Assembly (NCBI GenBank): GCA_963832925.1
Contig: CAWHVY010000013.1
Location: 29,797 to 93,796 of the forward strand
Reading direction: 5' to 3'
Source of the DNA: an uncultured Acidimicrobiaceae bacterium
GTDB taxonomy: Bacteria; Actinomycetota; Acidimicrobiia; Acidimicrobiales; RAAP-2
Length of the DNA stretch: 64,000 nt
Below are positions 47,624 through 54,251 of this stretch, one piece after another. Under the pieces are notes generated by a model. It made no database searches. It was not told where the DNA came from and worked only from the letters and a program-made list of their open reading frames with translations. Every line of letters begins with the position of its first letter. The first letter of the stretch is position 1. The position numbers and the translations under genes are program-made.

Positions 47624-48279
47624 CGGGCACCTCCGGCCTTCATCGGGTTCTTCACGGACGTGCGCAGCACGACGGTGCCGCCGCGAGGGCCGGGCACCGC
47701 GCCCTTGACGAGCACCAGGTGGCGCTCGACGTCAACGGAGATCACTTCGAGATTGGTGGTCGTCACTTGACCGCCGCCCATGCGACCGGCCATCTTCGTG
47801 CCCTTGAAGACACGGCCCGGTGTGGCACAGGCGCCAATGGAACCGGGCGCGCGGTGGTGCTTGTGGTTACCGTGCGCGCCGCCCTGACCGGAGAAGTTGT
47901 GGCGCTTCATGCCACCGGCGAAGCCCTTGCCCTTGGCCACGGCCGTCGCGTCGATCATCTCGCCCGCCGAAAAGGCGTCGGCGAGGATCTCCTGGCCGAC
48001 GCTGTAACCCGAGACGTCATCGAGACGAAGCTCGACGAGCTTCTTGCCGGGGGTCACGCCGGCCTTTTCGAAGTGGCCGAGCTCGGGCTTGGAGAGGGTC
48101 GAGGTGCGACGGGTCCCCCACGTCACCTGGACGGCTGAGTAGCCCTCCTTTTCAGGTGTCTTCACCTGAACGACGCGAGCGGGGCTGACGCGTACCACCG
48201 TCACGGGGATGGCCCGGTTCTGGTCGTCCCAGACCTGGGTCATGCCCACCTTCTCGCCGACGATCGCTTTGGTCGCCAC
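47620..48279 (-). CDS. rplC: 50S ribosomal protein L3
   Basis: GTG start, ATKAIVGEKVGMTQ, KGKGFAGGMKRH, HRAPGSIG, KGAVPG. Confidence 0.98.
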   Translation of the reverse strand: MATKAIVGEKVGMTQVWDDQNRAIPVTVVRVSPARVVQVKTPEKEGYSAVQVTWGTRRTSTLSKPELGHFEKAGVTPGKKLVELRLDDVSGYSVGQEILADAFSAGEMIDATAVAKGKGFAGGMKRHNFSGQGGAHGNHKHHRAPGSIGACATPGRVFKGTKMAGRMGGGQVTTTNLEVISVDVERHLVLVKGAVPGPRGGTVVLRTSVKNPMKAGGAR

Positions 48280-48400: not shown

Positions 48401-48441
48401 ACTTCTTTTGTTCGCCCCAAACTGCTTTATGGGGGCTATTA

Positions 48442-48471
48442 ACAGTACATCACAGGGACTCTTCAATGCAA
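48442..48471 (-). promoter_or_regulatory. Candidate promoter for rplC
   Basis: TTGCAT-N18-TACTGT on the minus strand. Confidence 0.4.
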
Positions 48472-48530
48472 AGCCCGGATACCGTGTTGACTCGGCCACG
48501 ATTCTAACCGCGCAAGAGGAGTTCATCTAC

Positions 48531-49352
48531 ATGTCCCTTAGCGAAACAATGTTGTTCACGGCGGTCGAAATACGAGATTCGCTGGCTCACGCAATCGGCA
48601 CCGGGTTCCTCATGACCGTGAGAGGTGAGACGAATCCTGTAAACATCTGGCCCTACGTGGTCACAGCAGATCACGTTGTTCGAGACGTCGCAACGGTTTA
48701 CGTCGCAGCCCCTAACCCCAACGCCAATGGTGAGCTCTTTGAACCTGTGCTCGTTAAGGATTGGCATCAGCCCGACGAAAAGTTGGATCTGATTGCGGCG
48801 CCGTGGCCATACAAGCCCAACACTCCGTACGCGAGCATTCCGATGGAAAATGAGCTATATCCAATGGCCGACGAACAGGTCTCGTTACTTGGTTCTCCGG
48901 TTCACTACGTTGGGCTCTTCGCTCCAGCAGGTCGAATGATGGCAAGGGCCGGAACATTTGGAGTCATTGACGCCAAGGGCATCACCCATGACCCAGATTT
49001 CGGTTACGAATATGACTGCCATCTCATTGACTGCAGGTCGTACTGCGGATTTAGCGGTTCTCCCTGCTTCGTAGAACTCTTATTCATTCGGAAGATGAAC
49101 GAGAACGGCGAGGAGATATTCCTTCCCCACTACCGGGCTCTCATGGTTGGAATGTTCACGGAACACTACGATGACTCCGAAGATCCGGAGCTGAATCCTG
49201 AGACCGCAGTCTCCCGATTAGGCGTCGGCATAATGGTTCGAGGTGAAGATATCAAAAGGGCTTTGCTAAGTCCACATTTCGTTCAAGACCGAGCATCTCG
49301 TGAGGCTCAGAATGCACGCGCTCAACCGGGAAGTGGGCCTCCAACGAATTAG
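48531..49352 (+). CDS. Trypsin-like (chymotrypsin-fold) serine protease, no signal peptide
   Basis: IGTGFL, VVTADHVV (His), KLDLIA (Asp), GFSGSPCF (Ser); AGAGGAG SD before ATG 48531. Confidence 0.8.
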   Translation: MSLSETMLFTAVEIRDSLAHAIGTGFLMTVRGETNPVNIWPYVVTADHVVRDVATVYVAAPNPNANGELFEPVLVKDWHQPDEKLDLIAAPWPYKPNTPYASIPMENELYPMADEQVSLLGSPVHYVGLFAPAGRMMARAGTFGVIDAKGITHDPDFGYEYDCHLIDCRSYCGFSGSPCFVELLFIRKMNENGEEIFLPHYRALMVGMFTEHYDDSEDPELNPETAVSRLGVGIMVRGEDIKRALLSPHFVQDRASREAQNARAQPGSGPPTN

Positions 49353-49393
49353 TCATGTCAGGTCAAGACCGATGAGAAATCCCGATCTCGCAA

Positions 49394-49552
49394 CTATCGC
49401 TTCTTGGCCTTCTGCTTTCGCGCGTAGGGATCTTTCATTTGGCCCGTAGATGTTGCCCCGACTCTTGGGTCGGAAACCGGTGGCTTAACAAGCACTTTCG
49501 TTACATGTACGGTCGATGAAACTCTGTCGTTGGTGTCATTGGTCGTGGTCAT
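49394..49552 (-). CDS. Small hypothetical protein (52 aa) overlapping the end of the Ntn-hydrolase gene
   Basis: GAGGAG 5 nt before ATG 49552; MTTTNDTNDRVSSTVHVTKVLVKPPVSDPRVGATSTGQMKDPYARKQKAKKR. Below the ORF-track cutoff. Confidence 0.45.
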   Translation of the reverse strand: MTTTNDTNDRVSSTVHVTKVLVKPPVSDPRVGATSTGQMKDPYARKQKAKKR

Positions 49553-50414
49553 GTGGTCTCCTCGGATTTAACTCTGTGGGGTAATAGTGCTTTCGCTCTA
49601 TCCATTTGAATCCTTCGTGACGGGATATTCCTGCCACCTCGACTGGTCCGCCGACGGTGTTTGAACCCGGCACATACTGCGTGTACCCAATTGTCGTATT
49701 CACGAAAAATCGGGCCAGGTTTATTGCATCTGCAAAGGGCATGGAAGGGATGACTGCACTACGACCTTCACGATTGAAGGCATCCATCACGGCGGTGCGG
49801 CTTGCTGGTGGGACGGCCGCCAAGACCGCAGCCAACAATGAAGGCGCATACCCGTTGAATAACCGTGCCACTGCATCAGCCTGACCAGTGGCTCTCCACC
49901 CCATGCCATTTTCATCCCAAATTTGAACGGGGGTTGGTCGAGTTGAAACATCTTCGAGCTGAAATTCCCAGAGTTCTGCGTGGCGCGCACCCGCTGAAAA
50001 GCCTGCGACCATGAAGCCTGTCAACACTGCCTCACTCGCCGTCAAATGTGAGAACAATTCGCCGTACATAAAATCAATTACTTTTTCAACTACTTCGCTG
50101 ATCTTGTAGCTTGCCGGGTCGAGTTCCCAACTTGGGTGGGCGTCATCACGTCCCATAAAGCGCCGTCTGAGATCCTTGGCAAGAGTTGCGATACTCGCAG
50201 CTTCAATCTGACCTCCACCCCATGTTGCAAGTCCTATCGGAAAATTACGGTGAAGGTGAACAATCTTGTCCGCGTTGTTATACACCTGATAGTCGATTGC
50301 CGGTTGAGCCGACACCGCCGCTCCTACGCTGGGCGCCGTCAATTTGAGGGTCGTAGCGGAATCGGCAGCCATTACGATCCCGTCAAAGACCTTCACGGCC
50401 ACAACGACGGTCAT
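49536..50414 (-). CDS. Proteasome beta-subunit/HslV-like Ntn-hydrolase-fold protein
   Basis: After Met removal: T1-VVVAVKVFDGIVMAA-D17-S, then NADKI, ATG(Q) and C-terminal VGGPVEVAGI, echoing the proteasome-beta pattern. Confidence 0.7.
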   Translation of the reverse strand: MTVVVAVKVFDGIVMAADSATTLKLTAPSVGAAVSAQPAIDYQVYNNADKIVHLHRNFPIGLATWGGGQIEAASIATLAKDLRRRFMGRDDAHPSWELDPASYKISEVVEKVIDFMYGELFSHLTASEAVLTGFMVAGFSAGARHAELWEFQLEDVSTRPTPVQIWDENGMGWRATGQADAVARLFNGYAPSLLAAVLAAVPPASRTAVMDAFNREGRSAVIPSMPFADAINLARFFVNTTIGYTQYVPGSNTVGGPVEVAGISRHEGFKWIERKHYYPTELNPRRPHDHDQ

Positions 50415-50502
50415 AGCGGCATCGTATCGTCGGCACTTACGCACATGTGGGACCACTCAAAGACCGTCAACAGCATGAGCGAGCCTGTGAACGCTTCATT
50501 CG

Positions 50503-50530
50503 TCCCGCGCGCCCTTAAGTGCACGCGGGA
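50503..50530. terminator. Hairpin immediately after rpsJ
   Basis: TCCCGCGCGCCC-TTAA-GTGCACGCGGGA imperfect inverted repeat. Confidence 0.5.
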
Positions 50531-50538
50531 TTTCATGA

Positions 50539-50862
50539 TCAGACTTGGCGAATCTTGATCTCGATGTCGACACCGGCCGGGAGGTCGAGTCGCTGGAGCG
50601 AGTCGACGGTCTTGGCGGTGTGATCAACGATGTCCAAGAGGCGCTTGTGCACGCGCATCTCGAAGTGCTCGCGCGAGTCCTTGTGCTTGTGGGGTCCACG
50701 AACGACCGTGTAACGGTGCTTCTCGGTGGGCAGCGGCACGGGGCCCTGCACACGAGCGTTCGTCCGCTCGACCGTCTGGACGATCTTCGCGGTGGACTGG
50801 TCCAGGACGCCGTGGTCGAAGGCCTTCAGCCGGATACGAATCATTTGTCGGTTGTCGGCCAT
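50539..50862 (-). CDS. rpsJ: 30S ribosomal protein S10
   Basis: [33 protein letters not shown]. Confidence 0.98.

Positions 50863-52164: not shown

Positions 52165-54251
<2,087 letters not shown>

Follow-up and report, generated by a model that had tools for sequence, protein, structure and literature searches.

A stand-alone hydrolase of the proteasome-beta fold and its translationally coupled micro-protein: a possible mobile conflict module in the S10 operon of an uncultured Acidimicrobiaceae bacterium

Introduction

What is a lone gene with the marks of a proteasome beta subunit doing among the ribosomal-protein genes of an actinobacterium, and is the short open reading frame (ORF) at its end a partner? 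The question is raised by a stretch of 64,000 nucleotides (nt) from an uncultured Acidimicrobiaceae bacterium (assembly GCA_963832925.1, contig CAWHVY010000013.1, positions 29,797 to 93,796), hereafter referred to as the window. The two genes, named A and B in what follows, code for a protein of 292 amino acids (aa) and a micro-protein of 52 aa, respectively. The analysis supports the identification of A as a stand-alone hydrolase of the proteasome-beta fold, separate from the PrcAB proteasome. B is a real protein-coding gene, translationally coupled to A, and the A-B pair is horizontally mobile and lives among defence and mobile-element genes. With regard to function, the reading that we prefer, at a rough probability of 45%, is that of a mobile conflict module in which B is the dedicated substrate, or a pseudo-substrate regulator, of A. 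The features of the two genes are as follows, in window coordinates.

49536..50414, minus strand: gene A, 292-aa stand-alone threonine hydrolase of the proteasome-beta (N-terminal nucleophile, Ntn) fold, without propeptide, from the ORF, the AlphaFold2 (AF2) model and Foldseek; ATG at 50414, TGA at 49536-49538 (ORF call)
50409..50411, minus strand: Thr codon right behind the start codon of A, Thr1 after Met removal (comparative evidence)
50361..50363, minus strand: Asp18, which is Asp17 of the mature A chain, invariant in 35 homologs
50265..50267, minus strand: Lys50, the K of NADKI, candidate counterpart of the proteasomal Lys33, invariant in the alignment
50421..50426, minus strand: TACGAT, tentatively a -10 box, 6 nt 5' of the ATG of A, read from the sequence
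49558..49563, minus strand: GAGGAG, Shine-Dalgarno sequence for B within the A codons for Arg-Arg, conserved in the clade
49394..49552, minus strand: gene B, 52-aa micro-protein overlapping A by 17 nt, from the ORF, its homologs and the coupling; ATG at 49550-49552, TAG at 49394-49396, C-terminus KQKAKKR
49424..49432, minus strand: Asp41-Pro42-Tyr43, invariant core of the window-type B in 39 cluster representatives
49463..49471, minus strand: Asp28-Pro-Arg, second conserved motif of B, with the invariant Pro25 just ahead (profile alignment)

Fold and active site of protein A

Searches with the sequence alone say little about the nature of A. The 783 homologous proteins retrieved at E ≤ 0.001 are all named 'hypothetical', and neither Pfam nor NCBIfam returned a match at E ≤ 1, the Proteasome family PF00227 included; the kinship of A with proteasomes is visible through fold and motifs only. 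PDB sequence searches with A gave nothing significant, the family profile reaching a best E of about 0.7, and when the A family was compared with the genome's own PrcB by hhalign, the N-terminus alone was aligned (E 0.19). The sole exception among the sequence libraries is a C-terminal match (4e-17) to PHROG 5990, a family of no known function.

A model of A, built with AF2 on 35 diverse members of the family, has a mean predicted local distance difference test score (pLDDT) of 89.8 and a predicted template modelling score (pTM) of 0.86. Foldseek comparison of this model with the PDB yielded 374 matches at E ≤ 0.001, the best one with an E of 1.5e-7 and a probability of 1.0. The 50 matches listed are all 20S proteasome subunits, nearly all of the beta type, with target-normalised template modelling (TM) scores of 0.6-0.68, and the best viral structure match, in BFVD, is a 'Proteasome beta type-2' (1.5e-10). 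The Ntn-hydrolase fold that the first-pass annotation of this locus had suspected from the letters of the DNA is thus the one retrieved, with the four-layer alpha-beta-beta-alpha architecture of the proteasome-like Ntn hydrolases (MEROPS T1).

The strongest argument for an N-terminal nucleophile is comparative. In 84 out of 84 loci, drawn from many phyla, the start codon (ATG in 44, GTG in 30, TTG in 8, ATT and ATC in one each) falls on the first column of the family profile, and the residue behind it is Thr in 80 cases and Ser in the remaining four. A Met that precedes Thr is removed from the protein. In the window, A begins with M-T-V-V-V-A-V-K-V-F-D-G-I-V-M-A-A-D-S; a longer gene starting from GTG 50456 would be possible in the window taken alone, and was excluded by comparison with the relatives. 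The assigned start is further supported by a TAnnnT hexamer, located 6-8 nt upstream in the window and in several actinobacterial relatives without a Shine-Dalgarno sequence (loci L007, L010, L011, L016, L020 and L021), which suggests leaderless transcripts. A generic promoter scan found no consensus promoter upstream of A.

Asp18 and Lys50 are invariant in the alignment of the 35 diverse homologs, and the same holds for the motifs T-W-G, M-P-x-x-D-A, V-G-G and H-E-G-F-x-W-x-x-R-x-H-Y. In profile-to-sequence alignments, which are weak, Thr2 and Asp18 of the family align to Thr1 and Asp17 of both yeast beta1 and the genome's own PrcB. Lys50 lies in the expected strand and, counted on the alignment, falls on mature position 37 where relatives have no loop insertion. 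The positions equivalent to Ser129 and Ser169 show no conservation in the alignment of A homologs. Most of what had been read from the sequence at first thus withstands comparison, namely the exposure of Thr1 by Met removal, the Asp at mature position 17 as in 20S beta subunits, the downstream Lys and the GG-P-V-E-V segment near the C-terminus (present as VGGPVEV), but a stretch 'ATG-Q', then equated with the TGS-like motif of proteasomes, must be dropped from this list, since the Ser129 region has no conserved counterpart. Judging from these residues, A would be active-site competent, with a Thr1 freed by Met removal, Asp17 and a Lys.

Compared with a canonical beta subunit, the model displays two extra helices (191-200 and 203-216), inserted between H3 (179-187) and H4 (227-246). 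H1 (75-86) and H2 (105-123) are present, and the model and the alignment show a short, clade-specific S3/S4 loop (27-38), which is modelled with low confidence. In the close relatives P0015, P0016 and P0021, the protein is extended beyond the usual stop by an acidic tail of ~25-30 residues.

A small gene coupled to A

Throughout the clade of the window, the ATG of B is preceded by GAGGAG or AGGAGG within the C-terminal codons of A (N-P-R-R-P-H-D-H-D-Q-stop), with a spacer of 5 nt between GAGGAG and ATG in the window itself. Other clades have A/B overlaps of the ATGA or TGATG type. The coupling was assessed at 96 non-redundant A loci, with genes from the same loci as controls. An ORF on the same strand, of at least 45 aa and starting within 20 nt of the stop codon, follows A at 85 of these loci, compared with 194 of 462 control genes (42%), and when its length is restricted to 45-140 aa, the counts are 82/96 and 109/462. 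The dominant start offsets are -4 (27 loci) and -17 (12 loci), then -8, -11 and -1, and a motif resembling a Shine-Dalgarno sequence precedes 60 of the 85 coupled ORFs versus 63 of the 194 in controls. The corresponding Fisher p-values, 7e-18 for at least 45 aa and 2.5e-30 for 45-140 aa, overstate the significance because the loci are related to one another, but the effect is large and spans phyla despite this kinship.

High-GC DNA yields many spurious ORFs, as illustrated by the 42% of controls with a downstream ORF of at least 45 aa, and B might accordingly be a by-product, kept by base composition or by constraint on the 3' end of A and giving rise to no functional protein. We consider this very improbable in view of several features. 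The insert that carries the pair is low in G+C, and both the Shine-Dalgarno sequence and the ATG are conserved. The pattern P-x-x-D-P-R-x-S-x-x-S-x-x-x-M-x-D-P-Y is common to fourteen B proteins from loci with A proteins of only about 50-60% identity, and a profile of these fourteen found 44 matches among 1.84 billion representative proteins, nearly all of them small proteins of 41-67 aa aligned end to end. P25, D41, P42 and Y43 are invariant in the 39 cluster representatives and D28 is at least 90% conserved, Asp-Pro-Tyr being the only invariant stretch. The codons at the invariant residues vary synonymously (CCG/CCC/CCA/CCT, GAT/GAC and TAC/TAT), and codon variability over B amounts to 0.69 at third positions versus 0.52-0.55 at first and second ones. 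Furthermore, the similarity cluster obtained in the sense frame reaches more distant loci than that of the antisense (12 versus 7), and a gene of 51-58 aa was called independently at the position of B in other assemblies. The first-pass annotation had singled out the GAGGAG within the 3' end of A and a low-complexity 52-aa ORF ending in KQKAKKR; both are in place, and conservation of the small ORF is borne out by the coupling across phyla and by the invariant residues with synonymous codons in the window clade.

No significant Pfam-type domain was found in the B protein of the window. Its low-complexity composition, together with the pLDDT of 34-52 that AF2 assigns to the B segment of a natural A-B fusion, suggests that B is probably intrinsically disordered. 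In this fusion (P0085, 364 aa, L136:578-1582), A and B are in frame on one contig of a metagenome-assembled genome. A single missing base, relative to relatives ending in HHVY, accounts for it, so that it may be real or an assembly error, and P0085 was dropped as independent 'Rosetta stone' evidence.

Outside the window clade, B takes other forms. The loci of Nocardia, Mycobacterium, Mycolicibacterium and Antrihabitans have a type with S-V-F-R-S-G-G-Q-T...R-P, and another actinobacterial group has N-V-Y-R-S-G-x-Q-G-A-A-V. In Acidobacteria, B measures 85-115 aa, carries S-Y-T-V and usually ends in A-I-L-R-D-x-x-x-[DE]-[LIF], and the forms found in Archaea and others range from 65 to 130 aa. Cross-clade MAFFT alignments were unconvincing and gave no motif common to all clades, and a search of nine partners belonging to these other clades gave no significant Pfam domain, the best score being a sub-threshold PCI-domain match in one partner (E 0.0036, 17.9 bits against a cut-off of 22 bits). 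In one acidobacterial clade, a conserved gene of ~225 aa (about 210-240 aa) without Pfam match comes after the pair (L026:7189-7890, and loci L033, L036, L038, L040, L042, L052 and L054), and the module may comprise three genes there.

Distribution and gene neighbourhoods

Among the 25 genomes of the genus, only this one harbours a close, full-length copy of A (100% identity), when 41 relatives were searched. Elsewhere in their genomes, two congeners and a member of another family of the same order possess only distant matches (27-34% identity, and 27-28% in the two congeners), and the relatives detected in a metagenome scan all share 41% identity or less. At a larger scale, 337 of 185,579 species, each represented by one genome, carry a relative of A (about 0.2%). 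They are spread over many bacterial phyla, among them Actinomycetota, Acidobacteriota, Pseudomonadota, Bacillota, Planctomycetota and Chloroflexota, and over several archaeal lineages. Cultured carriers include isolates of Antrihabitans stalagmiti and Rhodococcus sp. AG1013.

The neighbourhoods of eleven relatives of A were annotated, and a defence or mobile-type neighbour was recognised at all but one. At locus L115, a complete Gabija system lies directly upstream (GajA 1.8e-199, GajB 1.5e-117), and a NERD protein and a type IIG restriction enzyme accompany it. The relative at L114 has a type II methyltransferase and an OLD/AriA-like ATPase for neighbours, and that at L123 has AbiD within 2 kb; type IV Mrr (at L119), NERD and PIN proteins were likewise recognised. 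Type III restriction-modification genes and Cas1 also occur near relatives of A, as do transposases, a relaxase and, at prophage ends, integrases of the tyrosine or serine type. When the 134 nearest flanking genes of 77 species-level loci were considered, no partner other than B recurred, except for the acidobacterial ~225-aa gene; these genes include scattered restriction-modification, BREX PglX, HEC-01, PD-T4-6, mad and integrase genes alongside ordinary metabolic ones.

The position of several relatives at prophage ends, beside integrases, would also suit a module that serves the element itself, A being a phage or element protease that breaks down defence or regulatory proteins of the host, and B its adaptor or timer. 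A homolog with much larger insertions is indeed encoded by a Porphyromonas phage (BK068103.1, protein P0130, 414 aa, L137:1466-2902), a protein of the PHROG 5990 type, the family already met in the 4e-17 match of A. P0130 aligns to A by hhalign with a probability of 99.2% (E 2.5e-19), starts with M-T-A-I-V-G-V...A-A-D-S-A and ends with V-G-G-P-V-D-V-A-V-I-S-K-G-D-G-F-V-W-I-N-R-K-H-Y-F, and its gene is followed by an ORF of 55 aa. However, no phage genes lie near A in the window or near several of the relatives, and full-length members of the family hardly occur in plasmids or in the genomes of isolated phages, where only partial, C-terminal matches were found (2 of 50,697 phage and 3 of 72,556 plasmid records). 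A role in the service of the element is, on balance, improbable.

Relationship to known proteasome homologs

The genome possesses an ordinary proteasome gene set on another contig, with a canonical prcB (including the propeptide), prcA and a Pup-ligase-family (PafA/Dop) gene (contig C14, 82623-85294), which makes A an additional homolog, separate from this set. Near A in the window, neither an alpha subunit nor an ATPase or pup was found; its wider neighbours are rpsJ, tuf, fusA and rplC. The view expressed at the outset, that of a stand-alone homolog distinct from PrcAB, without propeptide and without alpha subunit, ATPase or pup nearby, is therefore upheld by the match to the 20S fold, the Thr1/Asp17 register and the location of prcBA. 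The 20S beta subunits and PrcB remain the best structural match, with the same register of Thr1 and Asp17 and a GG-containing strand near the C-terminus. A differs from them by the lack of a propeptide, of an alpha subunit and of nearby Mpa, Pup or PafA, by the absence of a PF00227 match, by the non-conserved Ser129 and Ser169 positions, and by its extra helices.

Fuchs, Alva and Lupas (2021, PMC8665760) catalogued 22 new prokaryotic proteasome homologs. Among these, the proteasome homologs with multiple insertions (PMI-1 to PMI-6) harbour insertions including one between H3 and H4; PMI-2 and PMI-4 have a broad, sparse taxonomic range, which in the case of PMI-4 reaches phages (PMC8665760). 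A resembles them in its proteasome-beta fold, its Thr1, Asp17 and Lys, its helical insertion between H3 and H4 and the absence of both a propeptide and an AAA+ partner, and the A family is likewise spread broadly but sparsely over bacteria, euryarchaea and phages. The clear homology of A to the phage protein P0130, with its larger insertions, is a further, indirect point of likeness, while a cluster look-up of ten NCBI-sourced relatives gave accessions other than those of the PMI representatives. A is probably a compact member of the PMI branch. In its insertions and its taxonomic spread it looks most like PMI-2, the most likely group, and its relatives in phages look like PMI-4. The difference lies in the surroundings. 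Neither genomic context nor co-occurrence hinted at a function for the catalogued homologs (PMC8665760), whereas the A family has a near-constant coupled micro-protein and neighbourhoods rich in defence and mobile-element genes. The enzyme family has thus probably been catalogued already, without function, and no later functional work on these homolog families was found in the literature searched; nor did we find any description of a conserved, coupled partner with an Asp-Pro-Tyr core, of a life in defence islands or of the insertion into the S10 operon.

Connectase, the monomeric archaeal MtrA ligase, relies on Thr1/Ser1 to act exactly at the Asp-Pro bond of KDPGA, which is bound as an induced beta-strand (PMC7980362). 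It is the one proteasome homolog with a known dedicated target and, like A, it stands alone; its short recognition sequence contains Asp-Pro, and the core of the window-type B is Asp-Pro-Tyr, within K-D-P-Y in the window. This likeness opens the possibility that A is a transpeptidase whose Thr1 attacks Asp41-Pro42 of B to give a covalent B(1-41)-A adduct; B(1-41) would then be ligated to a partner starting with Pro, or be kept as a reversible cap resembling a propeptide, B being in either case a reaction partner and not an inhibitor. The invariance of Asp-Pro-Tyr alone in the window-type B speaks in favour of such chemistry, as does the cleavage site of Connectase itself. On the other hand, A retains H1 and H2, which Connectase lacks, and has no two-helix S3/S4 insertion like the one that lies over the active site of Connectase; this places A outside the Connectase family. 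The candidate substrate of A comes from an overlapping downstream gene, whereas the target of Connectase is a metabolic enzyme. In addition, the B proteins of other clades have no Asp-Pro, and no second, Pro-initiated partner was identified. On these grounds, we judge the transpeptidase reading unlikely.

With HslV, Anbu and BPH, A shares the condition of a single-gene Thr1 peptidase of proteasome fold without alpha subunit, and its H1-H4 helices are those used for ring contacts. A might thus be a housekeeping-type ring protease in the manner of HslV or BPH, B acting in trans as assembly factor, propeptide substitute or gate, and the link with mobile elements being incidental. Proteasome beta propeptides can act in trans during assembly in Rhodococcus, and B, a protein of propeptide size that is predicted to be disordered, would be compatible with such a role. 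However, A comes without HslU and without the operon partners of Anbu (ATP-grasp and transglutaminase), it is larger (292 aa), and its insertion falls at the H3/H4 site, where insertions have been argued to hinder double-ring stacking (PMC8665760). Furthermore, HslV, Anbu and BPH are conserved chromosomal genes, whereas A is cargo of mobile islands, borne on a low-GC insert in the window and spread in a patchy, strain-specific manner (a close copy in 1 of 25 genus genomes, and relatives in ~0.2% of species). B is also hypervariable, unlike a structural assembly factor. Taken together, these features make the ring-protease reading quite unlikely.

Proposed function of the A-B pair

To account for the coupling, the mobility and the company of defence genes, we propose that A and B constitute a self-contained, horizontally mobile two-gene module, in which B would be made in step with A through translational coupling. 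The linear motif of B (Pro..Asp-Pro-Arg......Met-x-Asp-Pro-Tyr) most likely docks in the substrate cleft of A, and B would be either a dedicated substrate of A or a pseudo-substrate that holds A latent. The module would most likely serve genetic conflict, for which two options can be put forward. In abortive infection or phage exclusion, the loss, displacement or cleavage of B would unleash or redirect A; alternatively, the pair could ensure a toxin-antitoxin-like addiction to the carrier element. Binding of B to A, its mode and the biological role are inferences.

The pair is reminiscent of type II toxin-antitoxin and two-gene abortive-infection systems, with which it shares small overlapping genes, a fast-diverging small partner, a location in prophages, integrative elements or defence islands, and a patchy spread. 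It differs from type II toxin-antitoxin systems in that the enzyme gene comes first and B has no recognisable antitoxin or DNA-binding domain.

Several observations weigh against the interpretation as a conflict module regulated by B and keep its probability below one half. The motif of B differs from clade to clade, while the conserved residues of A barely change, and when residues of A were compared between Asp-Pro and Arg-Pro types of B, only conservative changes and no charge swaps were found to track the B type. In the AF2 model of the natural A-B fusion, the B segment is undocked and unstructured, a result that is uninformative since the alignment did not cover this segment. No DNA-binding domain, as in classical type II antitoxins, was found in B, and neither A nor B matches any of the PADLOC-DB 2.0 models. 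With regard to the neighbourhoods, housekeeping genes flank A at some loci, and the association with defence comes from roughly a dozen loci with annotation and from a qualitative tally, not from a genome-wide enrichment test. Finally, the residue aligned with Asp166 is Asp in about 90% of the relatives, but Asn in the A protein of the window and Pro in one clade, and this site is consequently not counted as catalytic here.

A more specific form of the proposal combines it with Connectase-like acyl transfer. A would be capped by the co-translated B, covalently or not, via an X-Pro bond (that of Asp-Pro-Tyr in the window), and infection or loss of the element would free the protease or ligase activity, resulting in a conflict module of a new kind built on proteasome chemistry. 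We put this version forward as a doubtful one. If capping of this sort is true, the clade-specific B motifs would represent orthogonal tag pairs for sequence-specific peptide ligases or proteases, and if the chemistry is Connectase-like, the diversity of partner motifs could yield new tools for specific protein ligation. Should the pair function in defence, threonine-protease chemistry would join the known bacterial immune effectors. Whatever the role, a coupled micro-protein and a clear genomic lifestyle provide a testable handle on this branch of proteasome homologs, and turn an orphan enzyme family into a two-component system in which binding, toxicity and phage protection, as well as the cleavage or ligation of a defined bond, can be assayed directly.

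The insert in the S10 operon and its other gene

Genes A and B lie in a block whose base composition departs from that of the genome, together with a third gene, named C.

48421..50540, no strand assigned: low-GC insert of ~2.1 kb that holds A, B and C within the rpsJ-rplC spacer, from composition and comparison with congeners
48531..49352, plus strand: gene C, trypsin-like serine peptidase, convergent with A-B, from Pfam and PADLOC; probable start ATG 48531 behind GAGGAG

The G+C content of the insert is ~52%, against ~65% for the genome, and the insert sits exactly between rpsJ (50539-50862) and rplC. Seven congeners align to the window as far as 50541-50546; on the other side of the insert, the alignment begins again at 48405-48452 for six and at 48262 for the seventh. 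The rpsJ-rplC spacer of congeners spans only ~90-100 nt, as measured at two loci, which identifies the ~2.1-kb block as an insertion. On the strength of composition and comparison, the insert is foreign to the S10 ribosomal-protein operon. When its ends were examined for target-site duplications or att-like repeats, only short matches at chance level were found, and an Rfam search of the locus gave no match.

Gene C matches Pfam Trypsin_2 (1.7e-6) and, partially, the PADLOC defence candidate PDC-S45 (1.5e-10), and displays the motifs T-A-D-H and G-F-S-G. It was considered as a third component of the module and rejected, as no C homolog was found at any other A locus. Since C never accompanies A elsewhere, the insert looks like two independent cargo units, and C may be a second, independent defence-type cargo gene. 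Of note, C opposes the direction of the operon, and rplC and the downstream genes therefore probably need their own promoter or read-through.

Further along the window, fusA, coding for elongation factor EF-G (52165-54251, minus strand), does not form a single reading frame but two overlapping ones, of 465 aa and about 265-307 aa. The break, near 52,860-52,960, reflects either a frameshift or an assembly indel in this essential gene.

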